Source: Phycisphaerales bacterium (GTDB lineage Bacteria > Planctomycetota > Phycisphaerae > Phycisphaerales > UBA1924). From it: a stretch of DNA of 58,239 nt. The notes under the pieces are model-generated. The model was not told where the DNA came from. It ran no database searches and saw only the letters and a list, made by a program, of their open reading frames with translations. Shown here one piece after another: positions 24,066 through 56,696 of the stretch (position 1 is the first letter of the stretch; each line of letters opens with the position of its first letter). The stretch lies in contig JBLHKT010000027.1 in the NCBI GenBank assembly GCA_047620485.1, forward strand, positions 1-58,239, in the 5' to 3' direction. The translations under genes and the position numbers were made by a program.

Positions 24066-24220
24066 GGTTCCCCCCCGGGAAATGGTGTTCAGAACTGGAG
24101 TGCAAATGCGACTGTTACCGTTGTTACCGTGTTACCCGCTTCCCCCCCTTCTCTCTAGAACGATTGAGGAATAGAGCGATACACGTCAAGTCGGTAACAC
24201 GGTTACATCGGTAACGCTCC

Positions 24221-26368: not shown

Positions 26369-26420
26369 GTTTATGCCCCCCCAGGCACCCCGACGAACGC
26401 CGGGTGTTGTTCGAGTTGCT

Positions 26421-32014: not shown

Positions 32015-34845
32015 TATGCAACTCCGATCGCGATAAAGCCAGACCAAAGTCCGGGGTGAGTGCCATTCTTGATTGCTTGACGCTGGGCCCGGTGAAGGCC
32101 CGAGAATAATCTGGCGGCGGGGGTGCCCGTTTTTGGGGCCTCGGCGTACATCCGGCTCATCAGCTCCCGGGCGGTCGCGTCGTGTGAGGCCCAGAGGCAC
32201 GAGACCAGTCCGCTGGCCCCGGCGGCGAGGAAAGCACGAACAAACCCGTACACCTCCTCGCCTGAATCGACACGGGCACGCCCGGTCTCGCAACCCGAGA
32301 GCGTGACCGCGGCCCCGTCCAGGTCGAGTGAGAAGATCTCACGGGCTGTCAGCCACCGGTCGTGCAGCTTGATCGCCGCGGCGAGTGGGTTGCCCGGCGG
32401 GAAGATCCCGTGAGCCGCCAGATGGATGAAGTCGGCCCCCGCGAGCTGGCCGAGCACACCATCGGCCGTCGCGTCCGCACCCGTCAGCAGGCAGGGGTCG
32501 GGCAGCACGTGCGCCACGGCGCGGGCCTCTGCGTCGATATGCGGGGCGAATCGGTCGGCCACACCAACGACGAGCGATCGACCCGTCGTGCGGTTCTCGG
32601 GTCGTGTGATCGCGCTGAGCAGGCTGGCGCTGGGGAGGTTGGTCACACTCATCCGCTCGATGAGGAACGCGTCGCCGTCGTGCAGTGCGCCGAACGGGAC
32701 GGTGTGCAGGTCCGCCGTCGGCACGCACGTGACACGGGCAATATCACTCAGCAGCGGGAGAACCGGGTGGAGCACGGCGTCGTGCAGCGCGAAGGCCGCA
32801 GAGATCGCGGCCGAGGTACGCTTCGCGGCCCGCGCCGAACTCCCCGAGCCTCGCACGATCGCGCGCCGGAACTGAAACGAGAGGTTTCCGGCCAAGGACT
32901 CGAGCTCGTCGAGCCCGAGCCGAAGATCCACGAAGTGGATCGCCCCCCGCCGAACGACGAAGCATCCCAGCGAATCCCCGCACCGAGCGTACGTGAGCAG
33001 GGCATGATCCGGATCCAGCGAATCGGCGAGCTCGACGCCCGGCTGCGGGGTGGCCAGGACCCCGCGCCCCGCGCGCGACGCGGAAAGCCGAGATTCCAAC
33101 CCCGTCACGCGGCTCTCAACCAGGTGGAGCTCCGAGAGCCAGTCGGTGACTTTGGGGGCTGTGTCAACTTCCGCGGCGGGGTCGATCCGGCTGTACAGAA
33201 AATTGAGCGCGGCACGCTGCTCGGCCAGCTGCATGAGCAGGCGGGACTCGTCCTCGGACCGCGCCGCCCGCGCGATTTGATCGGCCAACTCAACGTCCCC
33301 GCTGATCAGGTCGAGCAGCGCCCGTGAGCGCCCACGCTCGGTGACATCAAACGCCTCGGTTTGCGCGTCCGGCCCACCGGCCTGGAGGATCACGGCGGTA
33401 GCCTCTGAGAACACCTCGTGCCGCTCATCGATGAAGGCCGCTCGGAGCCGATCACCCTGCAGTGCCCCACGGATACGGTCGAGATGGTGCATCGCATGTC
33501 GGTACTGCTCAACCGCCTCAGCGACCGAGCCCCGGGCGCAAAGAACCCGCGCCATCCGGTGGTGCAGGTCCGCGAGCACCGAGGGCAGCGCGAGCGTGCC
33601 CGCGTCTTCGATCGCACGGGCGATGAGGTCGTGAGCCGCCTCAAGGTTTTCGTTCGCCAGCTCGATATCGCCGCGCAGCATGATCCGGAACAGCCGCAGC
33701 GTCGGGGGCTCTACCGTGCCTGCCGGTGGGTCTGCCGCAAAGGCCAGGGCCTGAGCCGTGTCGCCGGCGAGCAGGGCGAGACGACCTCTCAGGAGGCGCG
33801 CGGTGGTCTGGCCCGCGGCGTTGCCGAGGGTGTCATAGAGCTGTTGCGCCCCTGTGAGCGCGTCGCCGGCTCGGGCGGGGTCCCGCTTGAGCAGCACCGA
33901 GGCCAGCCCGGTGAGCGCTCTGGCGCGTTCGGCGGTGAGCCCAACCTCTTGGAGCGCCGAGTCTGACCGGGCGTAGAGCTCCGCCGCATCGTCAAGCAGG
34001 CCGATCGCGGCGAGCACGTCGGCGAGCTCGGCCTCAAGACGTGCCAGGTCACCCGGTGCACGGTCCTGCTCGAAGAACCGCCGTGCCAGCTCGAACTGCT
34101 CGATGGCCTCGGAGAACCGCCCCTGGCGCCCGAGCAGGTCTGCCAGGTTTCCACGCACGATCGCCGCAACGCGCGGCATCCCCGCCTCGTCAAGCAGCTC
34201 GCAAGATTCTCGAAAAGCAGACTCGGCCTGTCTGAACCGACCCAGCTCCAGCAACGACTCGGCCCGGTTGGACTGGATCTGTGCCGTAGTCGTCGGGTCG
34301 CCCTTCGCCAGCCGCAGCGCCTGATCGAACCGATCGATCGACTCGGACCATTGCCCCAGCATCCGGTGCAGGATCGCGTGGTTCGTCACCGCACGCACCG
34401 CGAGCTCGGGCTGTTCAGACTCACGGAAGACCCTCTCGGCGTGCTCGCAGCACCCGATCGCGTCGGCGAAACGCCCGAGGCGTGCATAGGACTGGATCTT
34501 GGTCAGCGAGACGTGCGCACGCTCGATCTCATCCTCACGCGCCGCGGCGATCTGGTCCGCTTCGTCGAGGGCGTGGATCGCGTCCGTAAAGCGGTTGGCG
34601 TAGTTGAGCGCGTGCGCCAGGGCGGTCCGTGCCCGCGCGCTGGCGATCGAGGCCTCGAGGCGGTCCGCGATCAGGCAAAGGATCTCGGCCTGCTCGAGCG
34701 CTCGCGTCAGATCACTCATCACCAGGTCACGCACCTCATCGATCAGCTCGAGCAGCACGCTTTCTGGGAACGACAGGCGCGCGACCTCACGGGCGCGGTC
34801 CGCGTCCGGCATCGAGGCAATCCGTTCGAGTTGCGATCTGTACAC
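32014..34845 (-). CDS. TPR-repeat protein with C-terminal CHAT (caspase-like) protease domain (943 aa)
   Basis: Multiple TPR-like helical repeats, then a CHAT domain with the His/Cys dyad (FIHLAAHG ... VTLSGCETG). Confidence 0.8.
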   Translation of the reverse strand: MYRSQLERIASMPDADRAREVARLSFPESVLLELIDEVRDLVMSDLTRALEQAEILCLIADRLEASIASARARTALAHALNYANRFTDAIHALDEADQIAAAREDEIERAHVSLTKIQSYARLGRFADAIGCCEHAERVFRESEQPELAVRAVTNHAILHRMLGQWSESIDRFDQALRLAKGDPTTTAQIQSNRAESLLELGRFRQAESAFRESCELLDEAGMPRVAAIVRGNLADLLGRQGRFSEAIEQFELARRFFEQDRAPGDLARLEAELADVLAAIGLLDDAAELYARSDSALQEVGLTAERARALTGLASVLLKRDPARAGDALTGAQQLYDTLGNAAGQTTARLLRGRLALLAGDTAQALAFAADPPAGTVEPPTLRLFRIMLRGDIELANENLEAAHDLIARAIEDAGTLALPSVLADLHHRMARVLCARGSVAEAVEQYRHAMHHLDRIRGALQGDRLRAAFIDERHEVFSEATAVILQAGGPDAQTEAFDVTERGRSRALLDLISGDVELADQIARAARSEDESRLLMQLAEQRAALNFLYSRIDPAAEVDTAPKVTDWLSELHLVESRVTGLESRLSASRAGRGVLATPQPGVELADSLDPDHALLTYARCGDSLGCFVVRRGAIHFVDLRLGLDELESLAGNLSFQFRRAIVRGSGSSARAAKRTSAAISAAFALHDAVLHPVLPLLSDIARVTCVPTADLHTVPFGALHDGDAFLIERMSVTNLPSASLLSAITRPENRTTGRSLVVGVADRFAPHIDAEARAVAHVLPDPCLLTGADATADGVLGQLAGADFIHLAAHGIFPPGNPLAAAIKLHDRWLTAREIFSLDLDGAAVTLSGCETGRARVDSGEEVYGFVRAFLAAGASGLVSCLWASHDATARELMSRMYAEAPKTGTPAARLFSGLHRAQRQAIKNGTHPGLWSGFIAIGVA

Positions 34846-35545: not shown

Positions 35546-36121
35546 TTACTCTGACCCACGATCCTCGTCGGCTTGTGCTTGCTCAAACAGCATTCTGAGG
35601 CGATCAAGGCACCTGGCCCGGCTCGGCCCGATGGCCCCCCGCGGCATGTCGAGCTGATCGGCGATCTGGTCGTACGCCGGGCGTTCGTCCGCGAACAGAG
35701 CAATGAGTAGTGACCGGCACCGAGGATCCAGGAGGTTGAGCGACTCGCGAAGGACCTGGCGTTGCTCGGTCAGCTCGAACTCGGCGTGGGTGCCGATCTC
35801 CGCCTCCGCCTCGGCTTCTCTGGAGACCGCGGACGGGGGGCGCTTTCGCAGCGCGTGCCAGGTTTCCCGCTGGGTTGTGGTGATCAGCCACGCCGCGACG
35901 GTCTGCCCGTCACGCAACGCGTTCAGGTGCCGCACCGCGAGCGTCCAGACGTTCTGAAACACGTCCTCGGCTTCTTCCTTGGGCAGCCCGTGCCGAGCCG
36001 GGATGGAGTACACCAGCCTCGAGTAGCGGTCAACGAGGTCCGACCAGGCCCGCGCGTTGCCCTGCAGGCATCGCGAGACGAGTTGGGCATCCGTGATTTC
36101 GTTCGCGGGTTCGCTTGGCAT
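35546..36121 (-). CDS. ECF-type RNA polymerase sigma-70 factor (191 aa)
   Basis: Region 2 (RLVYSIPARHG...EDVFQNVWTL) and region 4 (AYDQIADQLDMPRGAIGPSRARCLDRLR) are present. Start at MPSEPAN. Confidence 0.8.
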   Translation of the reverse strand: MPSEPANEITDAQLVSRCLQGNARAWSDLVDRYSRLVYSIPARHGLPKEEAEDVFQNVWTLAVRHLNALRDGQTVAAWLITTTQRETWHALRKRPPSAVSREAEAEAEIGTHAEFELTEQRQVLRESLNLLDPRCRSLLIALFADERPAYDQIADQLDMPRGAIGPSRARCLDRLRMLFEQAQADEDRGSE

Positions 36122-36379
36122 CGTTAACCGTGGTGTGTGTCCAGTGTCCCTGAGAGGATAGGGATCTCGCGGGTGCCGCTGTTGAATTCGCGCCGCGGAA
36201 GAATCTTTGAGAAGCGTGTATCTGCCCCGCCGACGCGGCCTCCTCTGTGGTGTCGTACCCGAGCCCGGGGGGCCTGGCCCGGTGCGACTCGAAACCCAGA
36301 CCTTGGTGTGACCTGGCACCAACGTCTCAATCTGATGACCCAGGCCGATGCGGGGAAGAACGGAATTGGAGCACAAGTC

Positions 36380-37186: not shown

Positions 37187-37435
37187 TGGCTGCGGGTTAT
37201 CCACCCCGAGCCCAACGGTGGTGTTAACCAGAACTCGGATTCTGAGAGTCTCCCAGAGAGCGCCGTGGGAAGAGCCCTTGATCCGGCGGGGTTCGCCTCG
37301 GGGTGGACTCTGGCGTTCAGATTCTGAGAGCGCCGAATCGTGCCCCACGCGGCCTAGACGGGCCGGGTTCGTAGCGGTCTCAGCAAACAAACAGGCCCGC
37401 GTCCTGATGGACACGGGCCTGGGAACTCCCCGAGC
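37187..37435. repeat. Copy B of the ~250-290 nt repeat module (see 737-1028); overlaps the last 10 nt of tRNA-Asn and contains its terminator
   Basis: See copy A. A single 11-mer unit here versus five in copy A. Confidence 0.8.
37382..37421 (-). terminator. Rho-independent terminator of tRNA-Asn on the minus strand (stem caggcccgtgtcc/ggacgcgggcctg followed by TTTGTTTGCT)
   Basis: Hairpin plus T-run immediately 3' of the tRNA on its strand. Confidence 0.65.
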
Positions 37436-37498
37436 AGGACTCGAACCTGCGACCTAGCGGTTAACAGCCGCTCGCTCTACCAATTGAGCTACCGGGGA
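37426..37498 (-). tRNA. tRNA-Asn (anticodon GTT), 73 nt, CCA not encoded
   Basis: Manually folded. Acceptor stem TCCCCGG/TCGGGGA with a terminal G-U pair, D arm GCTC-AATTGGTA-GAGC, anticodon arm AGCGG-CTGTTAA-CCGCT, T arm GCAGG-TTCGAGT-CCTGC, discriminator G. Confidence 0.9.
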
Positions 37499-39503: not shown

Positions 39504-41225
39504 TTAGGCGATGATCTTTCGTCGCCCCGAGACGTAATCCCAGAGCACGAAGCGGTCCAGGTCGTCGCCGCTCGTGAAGAGCACCCGCCCCTTGGTCGCC
39601 TCGGCGAGCCGATGAGCGAACGCGATATCGTCCGAGCTCTGCGACCAGCTTGGCACGAGGAAGATGTTGATCGTGATCCCTTCCTTGGCGCAGCGGGTCG
39701 CCTCGCGCATCGTCGCCTGCTCGGTCAGCGGGTGTGGCGGGTAGAGCATGTAGAGCATCTCGCCCTCGTAGTGCGCGGTGGGGAGCCCGTCGGTGATCAG
39801 GAAGATCTGCCGGTTGGGGGTGTCCTGGGCGGTGAGCACCTGGCGGGAGAGCTGCAGCGACCTCTGGATGTTGGTGAAGTGGGGGTGGACCATGGTCTCG
39901 GAGACCTCGGGGTCGGACATGTCCACGCGCAGCTGGATCCACGGGTCGCGGATGGTGACCGGCTTGGGCATGAGGCTCGGGATCTCGCCGATGGTGCGCC
40001 GCTTGGCGAAGGTGTACATCTCGATGAGCGAGAGGTGGTCGCCGGGATACTCGGTTCGGATGAGCCCGTCGAGCGCGAGGGCCATCTTCTTGCAGGCGAG
40101 GTACTGCCCGGCGTGCCGCATCGAGCCGGACATGTCCATGATGACGCTGGTGGCGGCCTTGGGGCTGTTGCGGGTGCGGTGGACGTCGATGTCGTCGCGC
40201 GAGACGCCGAAGGGTTGGCCCGAGCCGGACGAGCGCCGCGCCGCGTTGACGATGGTGTTGGGCAGGTCGAGGTGGGCGGCCGAGTCGCCGAACTCGTAGC
40301 CGCGCGTGCCGGGCAGCTCGACAGCTCCCTCGCCGCTGATCGGGCCGGTGTGCCGCCCGGACCGGCTGGCCTCCAGGTCCGCGAAGATCTCGCTGAGCAG
40401 CTTGGACTGGAACAGCCGCATGGTCTTGGGGGTCGGCCGCAGCCCCTCCGGCGTGGACTCGAGCCCCTGAAGCTCGGCCTGCTCGCGGAGGTACTCCTCG
40501 ATCCGCTCGCCGAGGTCCTTGAGCTGCTCGATGTCCGCGTCCTCAACGAACCGCTTGAGCGCGTCCGTGTCGATCTTGGCGACCTTCGCGTTCTTGAGCG
40601 CCTCACGCAGCTGCTCGAGCAGTCGGTCGATGGTCTCGAGCTCCTCGGCGATCTGCAGCGCCTCGGGGACGCTGAGCGGCTCGCGGCCGGTAAACGGGTA
40701 CCGGGCGTTCAGGTCTTCGATCTCGTACTTGGAGCCGAGTGTGTCGATGAGGTAGAGCAGGTCGCGGGCCATGGGGCCGTCCTCACGCTCGGCCTTGTAC
40801 CAGAGCCGCTCGAGCTCGGGGATCGATTCCTCGCGGACCGCCCGGTCGAGTTGGTCGCGGAGCTTCTTGCTCGGGGCGCTGGTCTCCCGAGCGGCCTGCT
40901 CGAAGTCGCGGGCGGCACTCTTGGCCGCGGGCTTCGGGTCGTAGGTCTCAAGAATCTTCCGCTTGCGCTCCTCAAGCATCGCGATCAGCGCGTGCAGCGA
41001 CGGCCCGAGCCCCGCGATCTGCGAGGGATCGATCTCGATCGCGTTGGCGAGCTCCTCAGCCGTGAACGGCCGCTCGTTGCCGTACATCATGAGGTGGTCC
41101 ATCGCGGCCGAGGCGATGTCGGGCGGGGGCGCGGTGGGCGAGGGAAAGCGTTTGGGGTTGTAGCCCTGGTAGGAGTGGACGAGGCCGCCGAGGGGGCCAC
41201 CTGGATTGGTATTCCGCTTGAACAT
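39504..41225 (-). CDS. von Willebrand factor type A (VWA) domain protein, ChlD/BchD-like partner of the upstream AAA+ ATPase (573 aa)
   Basis: C-terminal VWA with MIDAS DMSGSM (VIMDMSGSMRHAG) and a long acidic coiled N-terminal region. Start 2 nt after the ATPase stop. Confidence 0.7.
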   Translation of the reverse strand: MFKRNTNPGGPLGGLVHSYQGYNPKRFPSPTAPPPDIASAAMDHLMMYGNERPFTAEELANAIEIDPSQIAGLGPSLHALIAMLEERKRKILETYDPKPAAKSAARDFEQAARETSAPSKKLRDQLDRAVREESIPELERLWYKAEREDGPMARDLLYLIDTLGSKYEIEDLNARYPFTGREPLSVPEALQIAEELETIDRLLEQLREALKNAKVAKIDTDALKRFVEDADIEQLKDLGERIEEYLREQAELQGLESTPEGLRPTPKTMRLFQSKLLSEIFADLEASRSGRHTGPISGEGAVELPGTRGYEFGDSAAHLDLPNTIVNAARRSSGSGQPFGVSRDDIDVHRTRNSPKAATSVIMDMSGSMRHAGQYLACKKMALALDGLIRTEYPGDHLSLIEMYTFAKRRTIGEIPSLMPKPVTIRDPWIQLRVDMSDPEVSETMVHPHFTNIQRSLQLSRQVLTAQDTPNRQIFLITDGLPTAHYEGEMLYMLYPPHPLTEQATMREATRCAKEGITINIFLVPSWSQSSDDIAFAHRLAEATKGRVLFTSGDDLDRFVLWDYVSGRRKIIA

Positions 41226-41227
41226 AT

Positions 41228-42703
41228 TTAGACTTCGTACTGCACCGTCCCGAACCGCTCCCCCCGGCTGATCCGGTCCGTCGCCCAGAGCCCCGCGAGC
41301 ACGAACTCCACGCAGCTCGCCCGCACAGCCGGGTTCTCGTCCGCGTTGACCTCGAACGCCTTGGCCCACGCCGAGGGCACGCGCTTGAGCATCTGCTCGT
41401 AGTGCGCGCTGGGGAAGGTGTCGCCGACCTCGACCTTGACGCCCTTGCCGAAGATCTCGGCGATCTCTTCGAGCCCGTGCTCGTCCACGTACTCAGCGAA
41501 CACCTCGCCGATCGCGGTGGCGAGGATCGAGTCGAGCACCTGCGGCTCGCTCATCTGGTGCGAGCCCATCAGGTCCAGCTCCAGCTTGCCGACCGCCGAG
41601 GCGTGGAAGTGCGCCAGATCCGAGATCCGGGGCACCGCGGGCGACGGCTCGCCCTGGCTCTTGAGCACGATCGCCCGGCGGCGGGCGCTGGCGACCATCG
41701 TTCGGTAGTTGGCGATGCTGAATCGGGCGCTCACGCCCGAGGCCTGGTCCACGTACGGGCTCCGCCGCGCGACGATCGCCATCTGCTCGACGATCTCAGC
41801 CATGAACCGGGGCACGAGCACGGGGTAGCGCTGGGGCAGGGAGTCGTCGGTGCTTTGTGCCTCAGCCTGTGTGATCTCGATGCCCAGCTCGCGGTCCATC
41901 GGGTAGTGCGTCTGGATGGTGGAGCCGATGCGGTCCTTGAGCTGCGGGATGACCTTGCCTGAGCGGTTATAGGTCGCGGGGTTGGCGGAGAAGAGGACGA
42001 GCACGTCGATGTCGAACTTGACCGGGTAGCCGCGGATCTGGACGTCGCGTTCCTCGAGGATGTTGAACAGCCCGGTCTGGACGAGCTCGTCGAGGTCGGG
42101 CAGCTCGTTCATCGCGAAGACGCCTCGGTGGAGGCGGGGGATGATGCCAAACGAGAGGGCCTCTTCGGAGTTGAGGCTTGCGCCGCCCGCGAGGATCTTG
42201 GCCGGGTCGATCTCGCCGATCAGGTCTGCGAACTTCGTCCCCGGGGCCAGCCGCTCGGCGTACCGCTCGCTCCGGTGCCACCACGCGATCGGCGTCGTCT
42301 CAGGCGTGTGCTGGGCGACAAACCTCTTGCCGGCGCCCGTGATCGGGGCGAACGGGTCCTCGTGGACCGGCGCGTCGGGGCAGTCGAGGTAGGGGGTCCA
42401 CTCGGAGAGGAACCGAGAGAGCAGGCGCATGAGTCGGGACTTGGCCTGGCCCTTCTCGCCGAGGAAGAGCAGGTCGTGCCCGGCGAGCACGCCGTTGACG
42501 ATCTCGGGGATGACCGAGTCGTCGTAGCCGACAATCCCGGGGAACAGGGGCTCCGCCGTCTCGGCGTGGTCGGCGGCTTGTGTTTCGAGCGCACAGATCA
42601 GGTTGTCGCGAAGCTCGTGCTTGACACTCTTGGACTTCCACGGGCTTGCGCGCAGCTCGGCGAGGGTCGTTGGCAGCGTGTCGGGCGGGGTGGGTAGGTC
42701 CAT
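41228..42703 (-). CDS. AAA+ ATPase of the Mg-chelatase ChlI/BchI-like family (about 490 aa)
   Basis: [35 protein letters not shown] (Walker A) and ChlI-like insertions. Start taken at MDLPTPPD, accurate to within 1-3 nt. Confidence 0.7.
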
Positions 42704-42825
42704 CGGTATTTGGCTTCCTTGGTGCGGGGCCGGGTGGCGCAGGTTTCTGGGCCCGCTAGATGGTAGCGTGGAGACCGTCTGGGTTGCGGTGCATCCCCCG
42801 CGGGCAGCGGGGCGTAAGGAGAGAC

Positions 42826-44289
42826 ATGTCCGGATTAACAAGCCCGTTGCTCGCGAGAATGTTCCTCATCGCCGTCGCGATTGCGATACCCCTCGGCGTC
42901 GCGCGGGGGGGCGAGGTGACCGACGCAAGCCGCGATCAGGCTCCGGGCGATGTGTTCGAGATCGACGGGCGGCTCGCGGTGGCGGGGCTGCTGACCACGC
43001 CGGACTCGGACAAGCCCACGCGGCTGGCGCACAATTCGCCCATGTTGCGGATGCTCGACGGGCAGATCGCCCAGGTCGATCGGCGGACGATGACGATGCT
43101 TCGTCGGTTCGCAGCGGACTCCGCCTCGGTGGGGACCGCTGCGGCACACGTCGCCACGCTGCACCTGCTGGGCAACGACGGCCAGGACGAGTTGCTGCAA
43201 CTGCTCGACGACGGGGGCGACCTGGTCTGGGCACGGCGCATAGACGGCTCAGGCCTGGTGACGATCCCACGCAGGCGGCTCGACGCGCTGGTCAAGGGCT
43301 GGGACCGGCACGAGACCGGCGGCGTGTCGGCGGACCTGCCCGCCGGGCAGATCGTGGACCTGCCCAAGCCGTATGTCGAGGGGAGCGTGCGGCTGGACAG
43401 CCGAACGATCAAGGCTCGGCTCGACGGGGCGGATGCGCGGTACCCGTCGAGCGGGCTGACGCGGGATCTCGAGGAGGAGCTGCTCTGGGTGCGGCTGCCC
43501 ACGGGGCACGATGCGCAGAAGCCCGCCGGGGTGATGGTGTGGGTGAGCCCGACGCCCGTGTGGCGGATCCCGAGGCAGTTCAACGCGGTGCTCGACGAGC
43601 TGGGGCTGATCGCGTGCGGCGTGGACAACGCGGGCAACCAACGCTCGGTCACGGAGCGGCTGCAACTAATGTTCGACGCGCTCGAGAACGTGCGCACGCG
43701 GTACGCGGTGGACGAGAAGCGGGTGTACGTCACCGGGTTCAGCGGCGGGGGGCGGTGCAGCTCGATGCTGCTGCTCGGGTGGCCCGAGGTGTTCGCCGGG
43801 GGGGTGCCGATCGTCGGGCTCAACTCCTACCACCGGCTCGAGGCGACCGCGCCGGGCATGTTCATCCGGGCCCAGGTCGCCCACCCCAAGGGGCGGCGGC
43901 TGGACCTGGTCAAGACCCGGCGGTTCTGGACCTTCACCGGCGAGACCGACACCAACCGGTACGAGATCGAGCAGCGGACCGACCGGCTGACCTTCGACGG
44001 GTTCACCTGCAAAAGCACGACGGTGCCCGGCATCGGGCACGACATGCCGCCGGCCGACGAGCTGCACGAGGCGGTGCGGTGGGTGGACGAGCCGAGGCAG
44101 AGCGAGATCCAGAGCGACGCCGACGCGGCGGGCGAGGCGATGCGGGCGCACGACGAGAGGTTTGGCCCGAGCGAGCCCGAGAGCGACGAGGCGAGGGCGA
44201 GCCTGGTCGAGATCACCCGCAAGTGGCCCTGGACCCAGACGGCGTGGGCCGCGGCGGTGCGGCTGGGGTATGAGCGGGCGGGCGACTGA
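42826..44289 (+). CDS. Secreted alpha/beta-hydrolase-fold esterase/depolymerase-like protein (487 aa)
   Basis: Signal peptide, GFSGGG nucleophile elbow (G-x-S-x-G), and an IGHDMP His region. Confidence 0.6.
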
Positions 44290-44427: not shown

Positions 44428-46425
44428 ATGACCACGACCCGGATCGACTCACGGACCCTCGCTTCCCTCAATCTGACCGGGTCGTCGCAGGACCTGGCCG
44501 CCCGGCTGGGGCAGGCGCTGCGGTTGCGTCAGGGCGGTGGTGTGACCGGATCGACCCCGCCGACCAACAGCAAGGGGATCAACCGCCCGACGGACAGGGT
44601 TGATTTCTCGTCGCTCGATGAGTCGCTCAAGCAGCTCGGGCCGCTATTCCGAGGGATCCAGGCGGCGTCGGCCCGGAACTCGGGGGCGAGCACCGAGGCG
44701 TTTAACGCCGCGATCCAGCGAGCGGTGCAGTCGTTCGCCGCGGACGTGGACGGCGCGTATCCCAACGGGGTGAGCGGGGACTGGAACCCGGATCTGGTGC
44801 GGGGCTCTTCGGTCTTCAGCAAGGGGTTGAAGCTCGCCGAGACGCTTGATATCGAGCTGAGCACACACGGGATAGACGATCAGGCGGGCGTCTTCCTGGA
44901 GTTGGGCACGAACGTCAACAAGTCGGACCCTGCGTCAGCATCAACACTTGGGTTCGACGGGCTGCAACTCCAGGTTGCTGGGAATCTGGGGACGATGACA
45001 CTCTCGTTCTCCTCGGGGCAAACACTCGGGCAGGTCGCGGCGGCGATCAACGCAGTCAGCGGTGAGACCGGCGCGGTGGCCTCGGTGCAGAGCGGCCTCG
45101 GGCTCGTACTCCGCTCGGCAGCCGTCGGGCGTGATGCGTTCGTGTCGGTCGCCGTGGTCAATCCGGGGACTGCGGACACGACTGAGTTTGCTTTTTATAG
45201 CGTTCGAGGCCCTGAAGGTGAGGGGCAGCTTGACTCGTGGGGTGGCTGGTATAACGAAAAGGGATCATTCTCGGATCGCGGCACCGAGTTGAGTGTGTAC
45301 TTCAATGGCACCAAGGCCGAGCGGGTTGGGGACTATTGGACCGCGAGTCTCGACGGTGTGGAGGTGGCGTTCGATCTCAACGAGGCGTTCATCAATGCGA
45401 ACAACCTGTACGGGCAAGAGTTGAGAGCTGATCTGGGAACACTTCGCAGCTCGGATGTGCGTGCTCAGCCCGACGGGACGATCACGGACTTTGACAATCA
45501 GTTCGTGACCGACTCGCTGCTCATCGCGCCGGGGTTGAATCCGGGCGACTCCCTCGATCTGGATTTCGCGTTCCAGGGCGAGCCCGACGCGGCGGGGGTC
45601 TTCCTTGACTTTGGTGCCAACATCGTCGGCGGGCACCTTTCCCAGAGCACGACCTTTGAGATCGGCGGGCCGGACGGGAGTAGTTCCATATCGTTATTCT
45701 CTGGGATGACGATCAGTCAGATCGTTGCCGCGATCAATTCGCAGGCCTCAGTGACCGGGGTTCAGGTGGAGTCCTTCACGTCGGGTGTCGGGATTGTCCT
45801 GCGGTCGAACAACTCGAAACCCGGGGCCTTTGTCAGCGTTACGACGATCCCATACGGAGACGCTGACCCTGGTGATGACGGGCCATTGTTCACGGCGTAC
45901 GAGGTCCAGGGGTCGGGCCAAGATGCCACGATCGTGGGCGAGGGCACCGCGCTGGCCGACGGCGTTGCGTACCGCGACGAGGCCAAGGAGCTCTCGGCAA
46001 CGATCAACGGGCAGCTCGCGCAGTTCGCCAACGGGTACTGGTCGGTGCGCCTCGACACCGGTGTGGACATCACGATCAACGTGGACGAGGACGCGATTCT
46101 GGCCGCGGGCGGGTCGGTGAGCCTCGGGAGCATCTCGAAGCTGCAGGGCTTTCTGACGCCGGACAGCCCGATCCGGCCCACCGGGACGATCAGCCCGCGG
46201 GATGTTGGCGTGGATCGGCCGGCGGTGGACGGGAAGCGGCGGTTCTCCCCGCCGGTCATTCCTTCGCGACCGACGCGACCGAACGGGCCGTTCCTTCCCG
46301 GCACGCCCCGGACGCGGGTCGACGGCACCAGGCTCTCCCCGCCGATCATTCCCTCTCTTCCGGCTGACCCGACCGGGCCGGACGGCGTGGCCCCGCCGCA
46401 GCGCCGGTTGGATCTGGAAGCCTGA
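44428..46425 (+). CDS. Paralog 1 (665 aa) of a flagellin-like family: flagellin-D0-like N-terminus, two Flagellin_IN motifs, Pro-rich tail, C-terminal ...QRRLDLEA; no signal peptide
   Basis: MTTTRIDSRTLASLNLTGSSQDLAARLGQALRLRQGG resembles the flagellin INTNSLSLLTQNNL...ALGTAIERLSSG region. IN motifs: LSFSSGQTLGQVAAAINAVSGETGAVASVQSGLGLVLRS and ISLFSGMTISQIVAAINSQASVTGVQVESFTSGVGIVLRS. Confidence 0.7.
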   Translation: MTTTRIDSRTLASLNLTGSSQDLAARLGQALRLRQGGGVTGSTPPTNSKGINRPTDRVDFSSLDESLKQLGPLFRGIQAASARNSGASTEAFNAAIQRAVQSFAADVDGAYPNGVSGDWNPDLVRGSSVFSKGLKLAETLDIELSTHGIDDQAGVFLELGTNVNKSDPASASTLGFDGLQLQVAGNLGTMTLSFSSGQTLGQVAAAINAVSGETGAVASVQSGLGLVLRSAAVGRDAFVSVAVVNPGTADTTEFAFYSVRGPEGEGQLDSWGGWYNEKGSFSDRGTELSVYFNGTKAERVGDYWTASLDGVEVAFDLNEAFINANNLYGQELRADLGTLRSSDVRAQPDGTITDFDNQFVTDSLLIAPGLNPGDSLDLDFAFQGEPDAAGVFLDFGANIVGGHLSQSTTFEIGGPDGSSSISLFSGMTISQIVAAINSQASVTGVQVESFTSGVGIVLRSNNSKPGAFVSVTTIPYGDADPGDDGPLFTAYEVQGSGQDATIVGEGTALADGVAYRDEAKELSATINGQLAQFANGYWSVRLDTGVDITINVDEDAILAAGGSVSLGSISKLQGFLTPDSPIRPTGTISPRDVGVDRPAVDGKRRFSPPVIPSRPTRPNGPFLPGTPRTRVDGTRLSPPIIPSLPADPTGPDGVAPPQRRLDLEA

Positions 46426-46624
46426 GTCCGGAGTGGGCGGGATCTCGAGTCCTCTTCTCCAGCTCGGGCACCGGCCGAATTGGTCAGGGGCTGGGGCACA
46501 AGTGGGCGGGCGACTGAACGCCGAGGTGCCCCAATTTAGTGCGATTCGTAGGGAACTTCCGATACGAGTTGGAGCCGCAACCCGTGGTGCATGCCGCGGC
46601 GTGCGCCGCTGAAGGAGGACGACC

Positions 46625-47758
46625 ATGGCCACCCCCCGGATCGACTCGCAGACCCTGTCGGCCTTGATGTCGAGAAACACCACGAATGACCTGGCCACCC
46701 GGCTGGGGCAGGCGGCTCGGCTGCGTCAGGGCGGGTTGACGCCCTCGAGCCCGGGCTCAACTCCGGCGACGAACGGCAAGGGCATCAGCCGGCCGACGGA
46801 CCAAGTGGTCTTCGATTCGCTTGATCAGCAGTTTGGGGAGACTTGGACGATGTTCGACCGGATGACCCGAGTGGTCAGCCAGAACGGTGGGTTGTCTCGG
46901 GAGGAATACAACGCGGCGATTCAGCAAGCACTGAAGCCGTTTACGGTGAACCCGAACGGCAAGGCTCCTGGAGGAGTATCGACCGATTTCAACCCCGAGC
47001 TGGTGTTGACGGCGGCGATCAACGGGAAGGGTCTCGAGCCGGGCGAGGAGGTTGAGATTGTAGCGACTCTCGAGCAGTCGGCGCAGCAGGCCGGTCTCTA
47101 CCTCGAGCTCGGGGCCAATGCCTATGGGTCCAGCGGGGAGATCAACCTCGGCGGTGGCGGCGGCACCTTCACCATTGATGTCATGGGCACCGAGGGCAGT
47201 CGCGAGCTGAGTTTCAGTTCCAATCAGACCCTGGGCCAGATGGCTGCGGCGATCAACAGCTTCACAGGCGAGACCGGGGTCGAGGCGATGGTCTCGGGCA
47301 CTGGCATCAGACTCACCAGCAGCGGCAGCGGCTCGGGAGATTTCACGAGTGTGAGGATCGTTGATGACGCGGGCATCGTTGACAACGGCTCGGGCAACAC
47401 GCTCGGCATCTATGAGCTCGCAGAGGATGACTTCAGCGTTGCTACGGGTACGGCGACCACTTTTTCGTCTAGCCGCGGCTCAAACGGAGTCTGGGATGAG
47501 GGCCGCGACGCGGTGGTGGGTATCAACGGCGTGCAGGCACAACTCGTCGGCGGATACTGGTTCGCCAACCTCGGCGGCAGTCTCGAGGTCGCGCTGCAGC
47601 TGGACCTGGGCGCGCTGGGCTCCGCGAACGGGCCCGTGAGCCTTGGCACGGTCGGCAAGGCCGAGCACGGGCACGGGAACGGCCTGCGGGCGGGCGGTGA
47701 TGAGTCAGCCGGGCGCGGGCTCGCCGAGCCGCAGCGCCGTCTCGATCTTGAGGGCTGA
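46625..47758 (+). CDS. Paralog 2 (377 aa): same N-terminus (MATPRIDSQTLSAL...RLGQAARLRQGG), one Flagellin_IN motif, C-terminal ...PQRRLDLEG
   Basis: Strong ribosome-binding site GAAGGAGGA. IN motif LSFSSNQTLGQMAAAINSFTGETGVEAMVSGTGIRLTS. Confidence 0.7.
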   Translation: MATPRIDSQTLSALMSRNTTNDLATRLGQAARLRQGGLTPSSPGSTPATNGKGISRPTDQVVFDSLDQQFGETWTMFDRMTRVVSQNGGLSREEYNAAIQQALKPFTVNPNGKAPGGVSTDFNPELVLTAAINGKGLEPGEEVEIVATLEQSAQQAGLYLELGANAYGSSGEINLGGGGGTFTIDVMGTEGSRELSFSSNQTLGQMAAAINSFTGETGVEAMVSGTGIRLTSSGSGSGDFTSVRIVDDAGIVDNGSGNTLGIYELAEDDFSVATGTATTFSSSRGSNGVWDEGRDAVVGINGVQAQLVGGYWFANLGGSLEVALQLDLGALGSANGPVSLGTVGKAEHGHGNGLRAGGDESAGRGLAEPQRRLDLEG

Positions 47759-47910
47759 GTCCCTGTTTGGGGCGATGATCGTGCCTTTCGAATCGGCTGG
47801 TCTCGCGCGAGCGCGGCCCTGGCCGGGTCGGGCTGAACTCGCGCGCGTTGATAGTCGATAGACCGATATCGCTGTTGACACATCCGCAGAGCCGATCCGA
47901 AAGGACGCCC

Positions 47911-49143
47911 ATGACGGTCAGCCCCCAGATCTCGGGATTATCTTCGCAGGAATCACAGGTCACGCTTCAGCGTTTGGCTGACGCGGTCTGGATGCGCGAG
48001 GGCGCGACGCGGACGGTCGCCACCGCCACCGAGCCGACCGATCCAACGATCAGCCGCGAGTCGGACCGCACGGACTTTGAGGCGCTCGACGAGGTCATCA
48101 AGGGGCTGGGCCCGCTGGTCAAGCGGCTCAAGGCGACCGCGGCGAAGTACGAGTTTCAGACCGAGGAGGTGCGGGATTCGGCGATCGATCGGGCCCTGCG
48201 GCCGTTCTCCGGCAAGCACAAGCACCACGGGGAGGGCGAGAAGTTCCCCGGCGGGGTGACCGGCGATTTCGACTCGTCGTTCGTGATCAACGCGGCGGTG
48301 CACGCCCGCGGGCTTACCCCCGGCGAATCCATCGACCTGAGTTTCCAGATCACAAGCCAGGCCGACTCGGCGGGCGGGTTCGTCAGCTTCGGCTCCACCG
48401 TCTCGGGCAGCACGCTCCGGCTCGGTTCCGCGTTCCAGATCGGCGGGGCGAGCGGCTCGGCCGAGGTCATCGCCACGTCCGGGCAGACGCTTGAGCAGCT
48501 CGCCAACGCGGTCAACTCGCAGTACGAGAGCACCGGGGTGCTGGCGGTCGCCAGCGCCGGCGGGCTCGTGCTCCGCTCGTTGGGCAGCGGCAGCGACGCG
48601 CTCGTGTCCGTCAGTATTGTGGATGCGGGCGATGCCGACGCCAATGAGTTCACGGTGTACGAGGTCACCGGGTCGGGCGATGCGGCCGGCCTGGTTGGCG
48701 AGGGCACCTCGCTCGGCGGTGGCGCGTTCACCGATTCGGGTTCAGATCTGCAAGCCGCGATCAACGGGGAGTCGGCTGAGAGGATCGGCGAGTACTGGGT
48801 CGCCAGCCTGGGCAACCTCGACGTCGCGGTCAACGTTGACGAGGAAGCGATCGCAGCGGCCGGCGACGGCCCCGTGGACCTGGGCACCGTCGGCAAGACC
48901 AAGGGCCACCACGGGCATGACGATGACGGGCATGATGACCATCGCGAGATCCGTGGTGAGCACGGCCGCCGTGGGAATCGTGGGCATCACCGCGGGCACG
49001 ACGTGCGCGAGCGTGAGGACGACGACCACGAGAAGCGGACCGACTCGCCCGAGCACGGCGGTGGGCTTCGGCCCGTCCCGGCTGACGACGGCTCGGTGAG
49101 CAAGGTCGCCGAGCCGGAGCGTCGGCTCGATCTCGAGGTCTGA
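47911..49143 (+). CDS. Paralog 3 (410 aa): related N-terminus (MTVSPQISGLSS...LQRLADA), one Flagellin_IN motif, His/Asp-rich tail, C-terminal ...PERRLDLEV
   Basis: Start chosen at the internal ATG with ribosome-binding site GAAAGGA so the N-terminus aligns with paralogs 1 and 2. IN motif EVIATSGQTLEQLANAVNSQYESTGVLAVASAGGLVLRS. Confidence 0.65.
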   Translation: MTVSPQISGLSSQESQVTLQRLADAVWMREGATRTVATATEPTDPTISRESDRTDFEALDEVIKGLGPLVKRLKATAAKYEFQTEEVRDSAIDRALRPFSGKHKHHGEGEKFPGGVTGDFDSSFVINAAVHARGLTPGESIDLSFQITSQADSAGGFVSFGSTVSGSTLRLGSAFQIGGASGSAEVIATSGQTLEQLANAVNSQYESTGVLAVASAGGLVLRSLGSGSDALVSVSIVDAGDADANEFTVYEVTGSGDAAGLVGEGTSLGGGAFTDSGSDLQAAINGESAERIGEYWVASLGNLDVAVNVDEEAIAAAGDGPVDLGTVGKTKGHHGHDDDGHDDHREIRGEHGRRGNRGHHRGHDVREREDDDHEKRTDSPEHGGGLRPVPADDGSVSKVAEPERRLDLEV

Positions 49144-50626: not shown

Positions 50627-50690
50627 AGACGTTCTGAGGTGTGGGGCCGCCGCAATGTCGGGGGCGAATCGGGGTTCGAATTCTGGTAGT

Positions 50691-51863
50691 ATGCGTATCA
50701 TCCCATTGTTCGAAAGGGGACGACTCGTGATCCAGGGAGCGCTCAACATCAAGAAACTGCTCAGTGCGATGCGGCGCCTCGATGCGTCGGACCTGCACAT
50801 CAAGGTGGGGATCTCCCCGACCTACCGTATCGGCGGGATGCTCCGGCCCATCGAGGCCGACCCGATCGGCGAGGACGAGGCGGATCACCTGCTCGACCCG
50901 TTGCTGAGCGAGGTCCAGCAGGCGATGTTCGACGAGACCGGGAATCTCGATTTTGCGTGGCATTTCGAGCACCCGGACGGGACGACCGACCGGTTCCGGA
51001 TCAACATGCTGCGGAGCGGGAACCACACCCACGCCGCGATCCGGCGGGTGAAGGGTGTGATCCCGACGTACGAGGACCTGCGGCTGCCGCCGGTGTACTC
51101 GCAGATCGTGGACAAGGAGCGTGAGGGACTGGTGCTCATCGTGGGAACGACGGGGTGCGGCAAGTCGAGCACGCTGGCGGCGATGGTGGACCACGTGAAC
51201 CAGACGCGGGCCGAGAACATCATCACGGTCGAGGACCCGGTCGAGTATCGGTTCGAGCCCAAGCTCTCGATCATCTCCCAGCGTGAGATCGGGATCGATG
51301 TCAACGACTTCCACACCGCGCTGCGGTACGTGGTTCGCCAGGATCCCAACGTGATCCTGATCGGCGAGATGCGGGACCAGGAGACCGTGCTCAGCGCGAT
51401 CCAGGCGGCCGAGACGGGGCACCTGGTGTTCGCGACGCTGCACACGGGCGACACGATGGGCGCGTTCGGCCGTATGCTCGAGTTCTTCCCGCAGGACGAG
51501 CGAGCGTTTGTGCGGGGCTCCTTGGCGGGGACACTCAAGGCGATCTGTGCGCAGCGACTGATCGCGGCCAACGAGGACGTGGCGGGGAACAAGGTGGTGC
51601 CGGCCTGTGAGGTGCTGCTGACCTCGCCGACGGTCCGCGAGTTGATCCGTGACGAGCGGGACACCGACCTGCCCGCGGTGGTGGCCAACAGCAAGAGCGA
51701 GGGGATGCAGTCGTTCACGCAGGCCCTGGCCGAGCTGGTCGAGAAAGAGTGGATCGACATGCAGACGGCGATGGATTATGCCCCGAACGTGGACGCGCTC
51801 AAGAGCATGCTCAAGGGCGTGGAGGTCAAGGCGGGCACGCTGGTCGGCCGGCTCAAGGGCTGA
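50691..51863 (+). CDS. pilT: Type IV pilus retraction/twitching ATPase, PilT/PilU family
   Basis: LVLIVGTTGCGKSSTLAAMVDHVN (Walker A), ITVEDPVEY, and Asp/His boxes typical of PilT. Confidence 0.85.
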   Translation: MRIIPLFERGRLVIQGALNIKKLLSAMRRLDASDLHIKVGISPTYRIGGMLRPIEADPIGEDEADHLLDPLLSEVQQAMFDETGNLDFAWHFEHPDGTTDRFRINMLRSGNHTHAAIRRVKGVIPTYEDLRLPPVYSQIVDKEREGLVLIVGTTGCGKSSTLAAMVDHVNQTRAENIITVEDPVEYRFEPKLSIISQREIGIDVNDFHTALRYVVRQDPNVILIGEMRDQETVLSAIQAAETGHLVFATLHTGDTMGAFGRMLEFFPQDERAFVRGSLAGTLKAICAQRLIAANEDVAGNKVVPACEVLLTSPTVRELIRDERDTDLPAVVANSKSEGMQSFTQALAELVEKEWIDMQTAMDYAPNVDALKSMLKGVEVKAGTLVGRLKG

Positions 51864-53245: not shown

Positions 53246-54031
53246 TCAGACGCGACGGCGGCGGGCGGCGACGAGGCCCCCGAGACCCATGAGGGCGACG
53301 GTCGCCGGGGCCGGCACGACGAAGAACTGGGTGTTGATCGAGGCGGCGTCGTTGGCGCTGAGGGTGAAGCCAGCCGAGGCGCTGATGCTCGAGACCGGGC
53401 CGATGAATCGGTTGGAGAAATCACCCGGGTCGTTCCCGGCATCCGAGTTTGAGCCGAACGCGCCCGCGGCGAGGTTGTACCCGCTGAGCAGTGACGAGAA
53501 GTTGGTTCCGCCGTTGTAGTCGGCCCCGTAGACGTCCCCGTTGGCGCTCATGAGGGCACCGTCGCCGGTGCCGTCGGTGAGGGTGACCGCCGAGGAGGCG
53601 AAGCCGCTGGCTCCGCCATACGCGGCGTCGAGCCCGTAGTCGCCGCCGGAGAAGCTAAACGTGGTGTCCGCGTCCATCGAGTTGACGGTGTAGGCGAAGG
53701 CAAAGATGCGTGCGGGGCTGAGCAGGTCGCCCGGGTTGCCGCCGATGAGGACGTCAGCCTGGGTGATGAGGCCGATCAGGGCGTTGGTGCCCGAATCGCG
53801 GAGCTCGATGGGGCTCTGGGCCAGGGTGACCTGGAACAAGAAGAGCTCGGCCCCGTTGCCGATATTGGGGACATAGAACCCGTTGGGGTCGGTCAGATCG
53901 AGCTGCCAGCTGGCACTGCCCAGCGAGCTCGACGCGCCGATCGTCATCACCGTGGATGGGATGGCGGCGAGGGCGGAGCCGGCGGTCATGGCAAGACCGA
54001 GTGCCGCGGTTAGGGCGATGGTGTAGCGCAT
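53246..54031 (-). CDS. PEP-CTERM sorting-signal secreted protein (261 aa)
   Basis: Signal peptide, then C-terminal VVPAPATVALMGLGGLVAARRRRV (PEP motif, TM helix, Arg cluster). Confidence 0.85.
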   Translation of the reverse strand: MRYTIALTAALGLAMTAGSALAAIPSTVMTIGASSSLGSASWQLDLTDPNGFYVPNIGNGAELFLFQVTLAQSPIELRDSGTNALIGLITQADVLIGGNPGDLLSPARIFAFAYTVNSMDADTTFSFSGGDYGLDAAYGGASGFASSAVTLTDGTGDGALMSANGDVYGADYNGGTNFSSLLSGYNLAAGAFGSNSDAGNDPGDFSNRFIGPVSSISASAGFTLSANDAASINTQFFVVPAPATVALMGLGGLVAARRRRV

Positions 54032-54911: not shown

Positions 54912-55232
54912 GATCTCTCTCCATTCTCATTCAGGGTTGTGCCCTGGTTGACGGGTTTCTCAGGCCCGTAATCTCTCTTCAGTTCTCCGCTGGATGACCC
55001 CAGCGAAATGAAGCATAACGGAATTCCAAACCGATGGAAACCGGAATGCAAGGAGTTTTGCAAATTATTTGCGGACTTCGGGGCTCACCTAGCCCCAAGA
55101 TGCTGTATCCTTTCTGAGACCGAGCGGGGCTCCTCACCCATGTGGGGTGTTCGTCTCGGCCGAAAGAGAGAGCCTGGGAATTTTTCCGGGTGGACGAGAA
55201 GAGAGTACTTGAACGAGCACGGAGTATGTGAG

Positions 55233-56696
55233 ATGCGCAAGGCGTTGATGTCGCTCTGTTTAGGCTTAGTATCGCTGCAGGTCGGCGATGCCATCGCTGC
55301 GGATCGCCAGCCCGGAGCCCCGCTTCGTGTGCTCGTTCAGATCCCTGAGTCTCAAGCTCCCGAATCGGGGGATTTGGTTGAGATCGCCGCTCGGGCCTTG
55401 GGTTCGGAGCGGCTTATTGCTAGTCCGCTGATCTCTTGGACCCCTCGATATCCCGACCGCGTCCGAGAACTCGGGCTGGATCGGTACTACGAAATCGTCC
55501 CTGCCCGCGGTTGGGGCTGGGTCGATGCCTTGGCGGATCTGCCCGCCGGGACTGTGCTGCTGGGCGTGGAACCAGTCGGGGAACTGCACTTTGACGAGGG
55601 CGCCGGAGCGCGGGGCGACGAGTACCCGGACGATCCGATGTTCCCAATGCAGTTCGGTTTGCTGGACCCGATGGCCGGAATTGGGGCGCTCTCGGCGTGG
55701 CGAGAAACCTACGGCTCCGAGGAAATCGTGATCGCGGTCGTGGATTCTGGCGTCAGCGCTACCCATCGGGACCTGAAGGACCAACTCGTTGAGGGGTACA
55801 ACGCCCTGGACGGGTCGTCCAACACCGATGACGGGAACGCCTCGCACGGAACGCATATTGCCGGGATCGCGGCGGCGAGCACAGACAACGGGATCGGGAT
55901 CGCCGGGGTCAGCCGCGGCTCGAAGATCATGCCAATCAAGTCCTTTTACTCGTCGGGTTTCGGGCTCGAAACCGACGTGGCTGAGGGGATCATCTGGGCT
56001 GCGGATCACGGGGCGGACGTGATCTCGATGAGCTTTGGGTTCTCCAGTGTCTTGGGCCCGATGCAGGCCGCGATCCAGTACGCCTACGACAGCGGGGTGG
56101 TGCTGGTGGCCTCGACCGGGAACAGCCCGGGGCAACCGATCGGGTACCCGGCCAAGTATTCTGCCGTGATGGGTGTGGGGGCGTTGGCCAACGATGGCAC
56201 CCTGTGGAACAGTTCGCAGACCGGCCCGGAGGTGACCGTGGTCGCCCCGGGGGCTGGCATTCTCTCGACGTGGGACACGCCGACGGAGCGGAACACCTAC
56301 AAGCAGCAGTCGGGTACGTCGATGGCGACGCCGTTCGTCTCGGGGCTGGCGGGGCTGATCCTCTCGATCGCTCCTGAGCTCTCGCCCGATGAGGTGGAGT
56401 GGGTCATCCGTGATACCGCGTTCGATCTCGGGGATCCGGGTGTGGACTCGCAGTACGGGGCCGGGCGGGTGAGCGCGGCGGCAGCCGTGCACACCGCGTA
56501 CGCGCTGGCCGCGACGTCCTGCCGGGCGGATTTCTCGAAGGACGGGATCCGGGACGGGGCCGACATCATCGCGTTTGTGGAGGCCTTTCTGGCCAGCGAC
56601 CCCATCGCGGATCTGGCCATCCCGTTCGGGGTGTTCGATTCGCGAGACATCGAGCGGTTCCTGGACCTGTACATCAACGAGTGCGACGGGCAGTAA
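55233..56696 (+). CDS. Secreted subtilisin-like serine protease (S8) with a C-terminal dockerin-like repeat module (one DxxxDGxxDxxDIxxFxxxFL repeat; ends ...ECDGQ rather than Gly-Cys)
   Basis: VVDSGV, HGTHIAG and GTSMATPFVSG catalytic motifs, signal peptide MRKALMSLCLGLVSLQVGDA, and C-terminal DFSKDGIRDGADIIAFVEAFL. Confidence 0.85.
   Translation: MRKALMSLCLGLVSLQVGDAIAADRQPGAPLRVLVQIPESQAPESGDLVEIAARALGSERLIASPLISWTPRYPDRVRELGLDRYYEIVPARGWGWVDALADLPAGTVLLGVEPVGELHFDEGAGARGDEYPDDPMFPMQFGLLDPMAGIGALSAWRETYGSEEIVIAVVDSGVSATHRDLKDQLVEGYNALDGSSNTDDGNASHGTHIAGIAAASTDNGIGIAGVSRGSKIMPIKSFYSSGFGLETDVAEGIIWAADHGADVISMSFGFSSVLGPMQAAIQYAYDSGVVLVASTGNSPGQPIGYPAKYSAVMGVGALANDGTLWNSSQTGPEVTVVAPGAGILSTWDTPTERNTYKQQSGTSMATPFVSGLAGLILSIAPELSPDEVEWVIRDTAFDLGDPGVDSQYGAGRVSAAAAVHTAYALAATSCRADFSKDGIRDGADIIAFVEAFLASDPIADLAIPFGVFDSRDIERFLDLYINECDGQ

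Follow-up and report, generated by a model that had tools for sequence, protein, structure and literature searches.

Here, we describe three adjacent genes on a 58,239-bp contig from a Phycisphaerales metagenome-assembled genome (MAG; GenBank JBLHKT010000027.1, in full length referred to as the window) whose products carry the outer domain of flagellin without the parts that build a filament. The open reading frames (ORFs) lie in tandem on the + strand at 44428-46425 (paralog 1, 665 aa), 46625-47758 (paralog 2, 377 aa) and 47911-49143 (paralog 3, 410 aa), just as an earlier note, made from the DNA letters alone, had laid them out; the annotation of the contig lists paralogs 2 and 3 as hypothetical (ACI89L_002479 and ACI89L_002480). 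Each protein contains one or two cores of ~215 aa that the comparisons below identify as homologous to the D2/D3 outer domain of Phycisphaerales flagellins. Because the terminal domains Flagellin_N and Flagellin_C are both absent, the three are not flagellins in the functional sense. Our preferred explanation, put forward tentatively and at somewhat less than even confidence, is that they are non-polymerizing flagellin derivatives that belong to the late flagellar regulon and are exported without a Sec signal, the export route and the function being what we infer.

All three proteins match the Pfam entry Flagellin_IN (PF07196) above its gathering score of 22.7 bits: paralog 1 with 48.1 bits (1.4e-12) over two stretches, paralog 2 with 31.5 bits and paralog 3 with 30.0 bits. 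The one or two copies of this motif that the earlier note had recognized by eye are thus confirmed at the curated Pfam threshold, with both stretches of the double match in paralog 1. The same note had named Flagellin_N (PF00669) as the second family to be looked for; neither this family nor Flagellin_C is matched by any paralog even at E<=10, and none of the three matches an NCBIfam model. In paralog 1, phmmer finds two core domains, core 1 at aa 115-330 (44770-45417) and core 2 at aa 351-571 (45478-46140), and the single cores of paralogs 2 and 3 occupy aa 118-345 (46976-47659) and aa 116-329 (48256-48897), respectively. When paralog 2 is used as the query of a database search, nearly all matches are genuine Phycisphaerales flagellins, aligned over the central half of the query. 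Over the 196 aa from residue 132 to residue 327, it shares 62% identity with residues 158-351 of the flagellin P0003, which form the outer domain of that protein. Alignment of single-core family members with 16 flagellins in hhalign joins only residues 121-318 of the family to residues 151-345 of the flagellins, with a probability of 99.9% and an E-value of 2e-34. The structure predictions agree with this assignment. AlphaFold2 models of paralogs 2 and 3 have a confident beta-rich core with a predicted local distance difference test (pLDDT) score of about 90, and the best Foldseek structural matches of these cores are the D2-D3 heads of FliD and the D2/D3 domains of flagellin.

The accession of P0003 (MFT5422580.1) belongs to the same series as those of paralogs 2 and 3 (MFT5424682.1 and MFT5424683.1), and for this reason it very probably comes from the same MAG. 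Judging from this numbering, the organism very probably has a canonical flagellin, P0003, whose outer domain is closely resembled by paralog 2. The cores of paralog 2 and of its relative P0002 are 47-58% identical to fla2-type flagellin cores, compared with 30-41% to the other cores of the family. We considered whether each paralog mimics a different axial protein (fla1, fla2 or FlgL) and rejected the idea, since a clear match, to fla2, is seen only for the paralog 2 and P0002 cores and the others are ambiguous. Recent gene conversion from the organism's own flagellin was also discarded: paralog 2 is 58-62% identical to the flagellin of the same MAG and 50-56% to the fla2 proteins of relatives, and is therefore only slightly closer to the former.

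In front of the core, each protein has an N-terminal region (aa 1-112 in paralog 1, 1-115 in paralog 2 and 1-113 in paralog 3), and those of paralogs 1 and 2 are 49% identical. The earlier note had described the first ~35 residues as conserved among the three and as resembling the D0 helix of flagellins. The conservation is real, with L23, R26, L27, A30 and R34 invariant, and it is uneven, the M-x-T-x-RIDS start being shared by paralogs 1 and 2 and not by paralog 3. The likeness to D0 found no support in any of the tests applied to the window's three proteins: hhalign of the family N-terminus against 16 Phycisphaerales flagellins returned a probability of 0.5%, Smith-Waterman alignments of the N-termini with flagellin were no better than those of shuffled sequences (z -0.6 to 2.1), and a hidden Markov model (HMM) of the flagellin N-terminus gave about 0 bits for all three paralogs. 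The relative P0047 alone beats its shuffles with this HMM (4.4 bits; 0/500 and 2/400), its LDRLARSVRLNKA falling opposite LeRLStGlrinRg at corresponding positions, and a restricted family profile reaches p about 0.03. At most, a faint LxRL[SA]..[RW][LIM] vestige of the flagellin N-terminus may be present, best kept in P0047. An exhaustive HMM search of 1.84 billion representative proteins with the 130-aa N-terminal region recovered only four true clusters, from which we conclude that the region is new sequence with a very narrow distribution.

The AlphaFold2 model of paralog 3 has a weakly predicted first helix at residues 13-31, putatively amphipathic, a disordered stretch at 31-43 and a three-helix sub-domain at 56-99 (pLDDT 78-92) that is packed before the core. 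In paralog 2, residues 1-26, 28-71 and 350-377 have pLDDT <50, and across the two models such low scores cover the first 11-71 residues and the tails. No Sec-type hydrophobic segment was found in the first ~70 residues of the three paralogs, where the highest 12-residue Kyte-Doolittle mean is 0.10-0.92; for comparison, the Tat-like relative P0032 reaches 2.05. With no value above 0.92, the statement of the earlier note that the proteins are made without a Sec signal peptide is upheld.

Behind the core, the proteins continue into disordered tails (pLDDT <50) of variable length and composition and end in a common tip. Paralog 1 has a Pro-rich disordered tail at aa 572-658 and ends in RRLDLEA (46402-46422), paralog 2 has a short Gly/His tail and ends in RRLDLEG (47735-47755), and paralog 3 has a His/Asp-rich disordered tail and ends in RRLDLEV (49120-49140). 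The shared C-terminal motif and the divergence of the Pro-rich and His/Asp-rich tails had both been pointed out from the letters, and both are correct. The codons used for RRLDLE differ among the paralogs (CGCCGGTTGGATCTGGAA versus CGCCGTCTCGATCTTGAG), so the motif is maintained at the protein level. Two features of the tails may be recorded here. That of paralog 1 (46141-46401) contains two Pro-rich repeats, R.SPP[VI]IPS.P..P.GP, which look like a rigid spacer, and that of paralog 3 (48900-49119), like that of P0002, is rich in His, Asp and Arg (HHGHDDDGHDDH…RGHHRGHD), which suggests metal binding.

Distant outer-domain-only proteins whose N-termini are unrelated end in LDLEG, LDVLA, IDVEG, VDRTA, LDLAA and LDLRG, and many members of this wider set follow the tip pattern hydrophobic-D-x-x-[AGV]. 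The last ~9 residues of the trio (PQRRLDLEG) resemble the tips of flagellin (QPQxVLQLLG) and of FlgL (SLLDFLG). We built a scoring matrix from the last 11 residues of flagellins and applied it to ~5,900 ORFs; paralogs 1 and 2 and the distant L105_a obtained scores that, about 6 unrelated ORFs apart, were seen for nothing else but flagellins, FlgL and FlgK. The tip may be derived from the extreme C-terminus of axial proteins or may mimic it. What had been described as complete loss of the flagellin C-terminus is accordingly to be read in two parts, the D1/D0 helices being gone and the final ~9 residues retaining a likeness to flagellin and FlgL tips. We rejected RRLDLE as a general sorting signal, as only 14 matches turned up when 596 Gb of GTDB species representatives were scanned with a degenerate DNA pattern for P-[QE]-RRLDLE-x-stop, by our estimate about the number expected by chance. 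Neither of the 2 Planctomycetota matches that were inspected is a family member, and the trio's family is absent from the scanned representatives.

Paralog 3 appears to lie behind the promoter type of this order's flagellin genes. The promoter pattern, T[GT]AAC-N15-G[CT]CGAT (TKAAC-N15-GYCGAT), and a position weight matrix (PWM) were defined on flagellin upstream regions only (L008, L009 and L024), and the motif derived in this way is present 145-235 nt before the ATG in 46 of the 64 Phycisphaerales flagellin genes. On both strands of the window, the exact pattern has a single occurrence (expected 0.11), at 47834-47859, which is 52 nt upstream of the paralog 3 start. By PWM, this site ranks second among all window positions and, compared with a 300-nt null, falls close to the 99th percentile. 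The candidate promoter as a whole, CTGAAC-N15-GTCGATAG, occupies 47833-47861 on the + strand, with its -10-like element ending 49 nt upstream of the ATG. Weaker versions stand at the aligned upstream positions of the related loci L001 and L002 (about the 98-99th percentile), and the second gene of a pair at the distant locus L105 has CTGAAC-N15-GCCGATGG, above the 99th percentile. The flagellin-type pattern resembles the sigma-28 elements TCTAAAG (-35) and GCCGATAA (-10) (PMC12784957), and we describe the paralog 3 promoter as sigma-28-like on the strength of this resemblance.

Directly after the -10-like element lies a box, ACCGATATCG, with the palindrome CGATATCG (47862-47871, +). It is invariant in an alignment of three paralog-3-type upstream regions (the window, L001 and L002) and might act as an operator or as a further -10-like element. 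A different box, AACTTCCGATACGAGTT (46554-46570, +), is found upstream of paralog 2 and upstream of the L001 ortholog of paralog 1, with a degenerate copy in the upstream region of paralog 1 of the window; it has the CCGATA core of the sigma-28 -10 element and no recognizable -35 element (PWM score -3.1). A looser pattern, TNRAY-N15-GYCGAT, was abandoned as unspecific, with 9 window matches mostly in coding sequence. A TTG at 47848 is unlikely as the start of paralog 3; we place the start at the ATG because the ortholog and the NCBI gene model begin there. The sigma factor gene at 35546-36376 was considered as a nearby sigma-28 factor and dismissed, being of the extracytoplasmic function (ECF) type. 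As regards the flagellin genes of the order, those at L008, L009, L024 and about 40 other loci have CT[GT][AC]A[CT]-N15-G[CT]CGAT upstream of fla2, and a long leader (~150-200 nt) follows the promoter, an arrangement in keeping with the fliW-csrA genes next to them and with possible control by CsrA.

The trio belongs to a family with closely related loci. There is one copy at L002 (P0047), there are two at L001 (the paralog 1 ortholog and P0002) and there are three in the window, which bears out the earlier proposal of an uncharacterized family that has diversified by tandem duplication. The neighbors at L001 and L002 are the same as in the window: genes for a VWA protein and a MoxR-like AAA protein on the other strand, an esterase-like hydrolase upstream and PilT downstream. 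Paralog 1 is 77% identical to its L001 ortholog, with a dN/dS of 0.21, and for all modules compared with their L001 orthologs the ratio is 0.13-0.38, which marks them as real genes under purifying selection. The trio evolves faster (56-77% identity) than the neighboring AAA and VWA genes (90-92%). P0002 has a paralog-3-like N-terminus (71%) and tail (66%), and its core is paralog-2-like (57% versus 44%). The family diversifies by tandem duplication and, as these mosaic identities indicate, by swapping of N-terminus, core and tail between paralogs. Paralog 3 is the ancestral-type copy.

Outer-domain-only genes recur in several Phycisphaerales lineages, where they evolve fast and have been duplicated repeatedly, and the neighborhood is shared in at least L001, L002 and L103. 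At L103, a distant syntenic locus, the AAA protein is 69%, PilT 59% and the hydrolase 34% (E 4e-80) identical, the hydrolase lying ~5 kb upstream of two outer-domain-only genes in tandem, whose products start with a hydrophobic Tat-like stretch. L105 has a further tandem pair of outer-domain-only genes, and P0004 combines two cores in one protein. The relatives comprise P0004 (which also has an NCBI record), P0032/P0051, P0052, P0055, P0056, P0059 and P0064-66; they are unnamed or hypothetical and mostly metagenomic. Like the trio, these proteins have no D0/D1, carry one or two cores or occur as tandem pairs, and in several cases end in LD[LV]x[GA]. Unlike the trio, they have unrelated N-termini, Tat-like in some, and some do not have the C-terminal tip. 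The N-termini at L103 (6882-8726) and L006/L007 (P0032) read …ELRRLSGLLQTV[AT]ALAAVA.SQHALAP, which has a Tat-like look and also echoes the flagellin sequence LERLSTGL.

According to our preferred explanation, the proteins would be made together with flagellin and would leave the cytoplasm without a Sec signal, most plausibly via the flagellar type III apparatus, with export directed by the unstructured N-terminal ~50 residues. Relatives of the organism carry flgK-flgL-fliW-csrA-fla1-fla2 loci. As the D0/D1 coiled-coil is absent, the proteins have no known part with which to enter the filament core or to offer the known FliS/FliW binding regions; no chaperone gene lies near the trio. Unable to polymerize, they would be released or held near the flagellum, where flagellin-like surfaces would be shown as decoys or binding modules, and the conserved peptide at the C-terminal tip would serve for docking or recognition. 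It is also conceivable, if unlikely, that they are transcribed from a flagellin-type promoter, exported via the flagellar channel and mimic the filament surface in soluble or tethered form, with a tip that is a previously unrecognized docking peptide taken from axial proteins. As mimics, they might, for example, divert phages or grazers that bind flagella or act as binding modules, and the locus would represent flagellin outer domains circulating as independent recombining modules, with a bearing on the origin of these domains.

Several observations weigh against this preferred explanation. In the distant branch (P0032 and the L103 pair), the N-terminus is instead hydrophobic and Tat-like, and the route is presumably another one, so flagellar export would not be general for the wider family. 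Paralogs 1 and 2 are without a sigma-28-like promoter, the promoter match is to a short consensus only, and sigma-28 dependence in the Phycisphaerales is assumed. A simple mimicry or decoy model is weakened by the fact that paralog 2 alone is close to the organism's own flagellin, the identity of paralogs 1 and 3 to flagellin cores being no more than ~30-35%. Neither flagellin nor any known export signal is significantly similar to the N-terminus, and the locus sits in a conserved non-flagellar neighborhood (AAA/VWA, hydrolase, MOFRL kinase and PilT).

Part of this evidence would fit non-flagellar export, which we regard as rather unlikely. The proteins would then have a role in the envelope, at the surface or outside the cell, the tip and the disordered tail forming an uncleaved C-terminal signal or anchor (type I or PDZ/TPR-docking style) and the variable linker holding the outer-domain modules off that anchor, as adhesins or binding proteins. 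The conserved element does stand at the extreme C-terminus after a disordered linker of 25-90 residues, and the hydrophobic-D-x-x-[AGV] tip recurs in lineages with unrelated N-termini. Proteases and lipases that use type I secretion have an acidic residue and then hydrophobic ones at their C-terminal end, and giant adhesins that leave the cell by this route can likewise contain Flagellin_IN repeats. The Tat-like signal of the distant branch would point to an extracytoplasmic workplace for the whole family, and the neighboring hydrolase has a signal peptide. However, there is no ATP-binding cassette (ABC) transporter, membrane-fusion or TolC gene in the window or the four related loci, the proteins have no RTX repeats, and the chance-level matches of the 596-Gb DNA scan argue that the tip is not a shared sorting signal. 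A non-flagellar route would also leave the flagellin-type promoter unexplained.

If the proteins did not leave the cell at all, they could be cytoplasmic flagellin look-alikes in regulation or quality control that might titrate an enzyme or factor recognizing the flagellin outer domain, for instance a glycosyltransferase or a protease, with the tip as a degradation or partner-binding tag. Tags for proteases or adaptors typically take the form of short conserved peptides at the C-terminus, no secretion signal is recognizable, the sigma-28-like promoter is compatible with a late-stage regulator, and genes of a FliW-CsrA partner switch adjoin the flagellin genes in these organisms. Nevertheless, we find such a role improbable. 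FliS and FliW, the known flagellin-binding regulators, bind D0/D1, which the trio does not have; fast-evolving cores, tandem amplification, module shuffling and Pro- or His-rich linkers look like exposed proteins rather than regulators; and the Tat-like branch favors a location outside the cytoplasm. Very unlikely, in our estimation, is lateral binding to the filament through contacts between outer domains, which would form a sheath-like layer or change the properties of the filament. The 58-62% identity of the paralog 2 core to the outer domain of the organism's own flagellin and the co-expression suggested by the promoter are in line with it, as are the outer-domain dimers and tetramers on the filament surface in published structures (PMC8931119, PMC11532411). 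On the other hand, the low identity of paralogs 1 and 3 to flagellin cores speaks against such contacts, a protein exiting via the channel would emerge at the tip and not along the shaft, and the long disordered tails would have no explanation.

Among known systems, the trio is closest to the flagellin (FliC/Fla) of the Phycisphaerales, with which it shares a core homologous to D2/D3 (up to 62% identity, same fold class), the promoter type of paralog 3 and the likeness of the extreme C-terminal peptide. It differs in having no D0/D1 at either end, in the new N-terminal 110 residues and tails, in the two tandem outer domains of paralog 1 and in the position of the genes outside flagellar clusters. 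The FliD (HAP2) cap has FliD_N/FliD_C coiled-coil legs that the trio does not have; there is no Pfam FliD match, and sequence identity to the D2-D3 heads is 11-18%, compared with 30-62% for flagellin outer domains. FlaC-type homologs of Campylobacter are released through the flagellar apparatus, do not build filaments, and keep D0/D1 without outer domains. The trio, with the outer domain only, is the mirror image of FlaC, and release through the flagellar apparatus is what our working model proposes for it. A precedent for flagellin relatives in non-motility surface binding comes from Sphingomonas sp. A1, whose flagellin homologs are said to be full-length flagellins. These homologs are used as cell-surface alginate-binding proteins (PMC9751261).

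Concerning the surroundings of the trio, no flagellar gene was detected among the Pfam-scanned ORFs across the window, in keeping with the earlier remark that none is nearby, and pilT lies downstream at 50655-51863. The gene directly upstream (42826-44289, +) encodes an esterase/PHB-depolymerase-like alpha/beta hydrolase with a signal peptide, matched to the esterase of PDB entry 3doh at 7e-6 and to TIGR01840 below its cut-off. It stands directly upstream of the family genes, on the same strand, in all three close loci. We rejected a functional link between the hydrolase and the family, given that the hydrolase adjacent to the distant P0004 gene is not homologous and that the homolog at L103 is ~5 kb away; the association is probably synteny rather than shared function. 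The hydrolase contains an internal RRLDL (GRRLDLV, window position 43894), a pentapeptide identical to that in the trio's C-terminal motif. We discounted it as a shared motif, since it is kept in L001 and changed to RRMDL in L002, and it is probably a coincidence. Divergent from the hydrolase and outer-domain genes are the genes for the MoxR-like AAA+ ATPase and the VWA protein (Rv0959-like), at 39504-42841 (-) in the window, 2016-5233 in L001 and 5131-8339 in L002. A BatA-BatD/VWA operon lies immediately upstream of the distant P0004 locus (L005 1-7135). A phage, plasmid or defense origin was rejected in the absence of any match to PHROGs, PADLOC, phages or plasmids, and neither RNA elements nor DNA tandem repeats were found in the region.

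Elsewhere in the window, positions 22734-28405 probably represent an integrated mobile element, encoding a ParB_N and N6/N4 DNA methylase protein (22734-24065, -), a Prim-Pol/D5_N primase (24221-26443, -) and a large serine recombinase (26846-28405, -). A 943-aa protein with TPR and CHAT (caspase-like) domains adjoins an S8 subtilase at 30590-34845 (-); a second S8 subtilase is encoded at 55008-56696 and a PEP-CTERM protein at 53246-54031 (-). A very large sensor with SBP_bac_3, dCache, SpoIIE phosphatase and HATPase_c_2 domains (2831-6154, -) and a second SpoIIE phosphatase (10128-11357, -) together look like an elaborate partner-switching module. The sole tRNA gene of the contig is a tRNA-Asn (GTT) at 37426-37498 (-).

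In our literature searches, we did not come across flagellin outer-domain proteins that are free-standing. Flagellin outer domains are described as highly diverse, with mostly unknown functions and an open evolutionary origin (PMC11532411). In the Phycisphaerales, the same outer domain also occurs as free-standing genes that are under purifying selection, tandemly duplicated and exchanging modules. The C-terminal heptapeptide and the promoter offer direct and cheap experimental entry points. Should they prove to be exported and to work at or close to the flagellum, the proteins would represent a new class of flagellar accessory and give a handle on what outer domains bind. Otherwise, they are still a concrete case of outer-domain modules moving between flagellin and non-flagellin genes.

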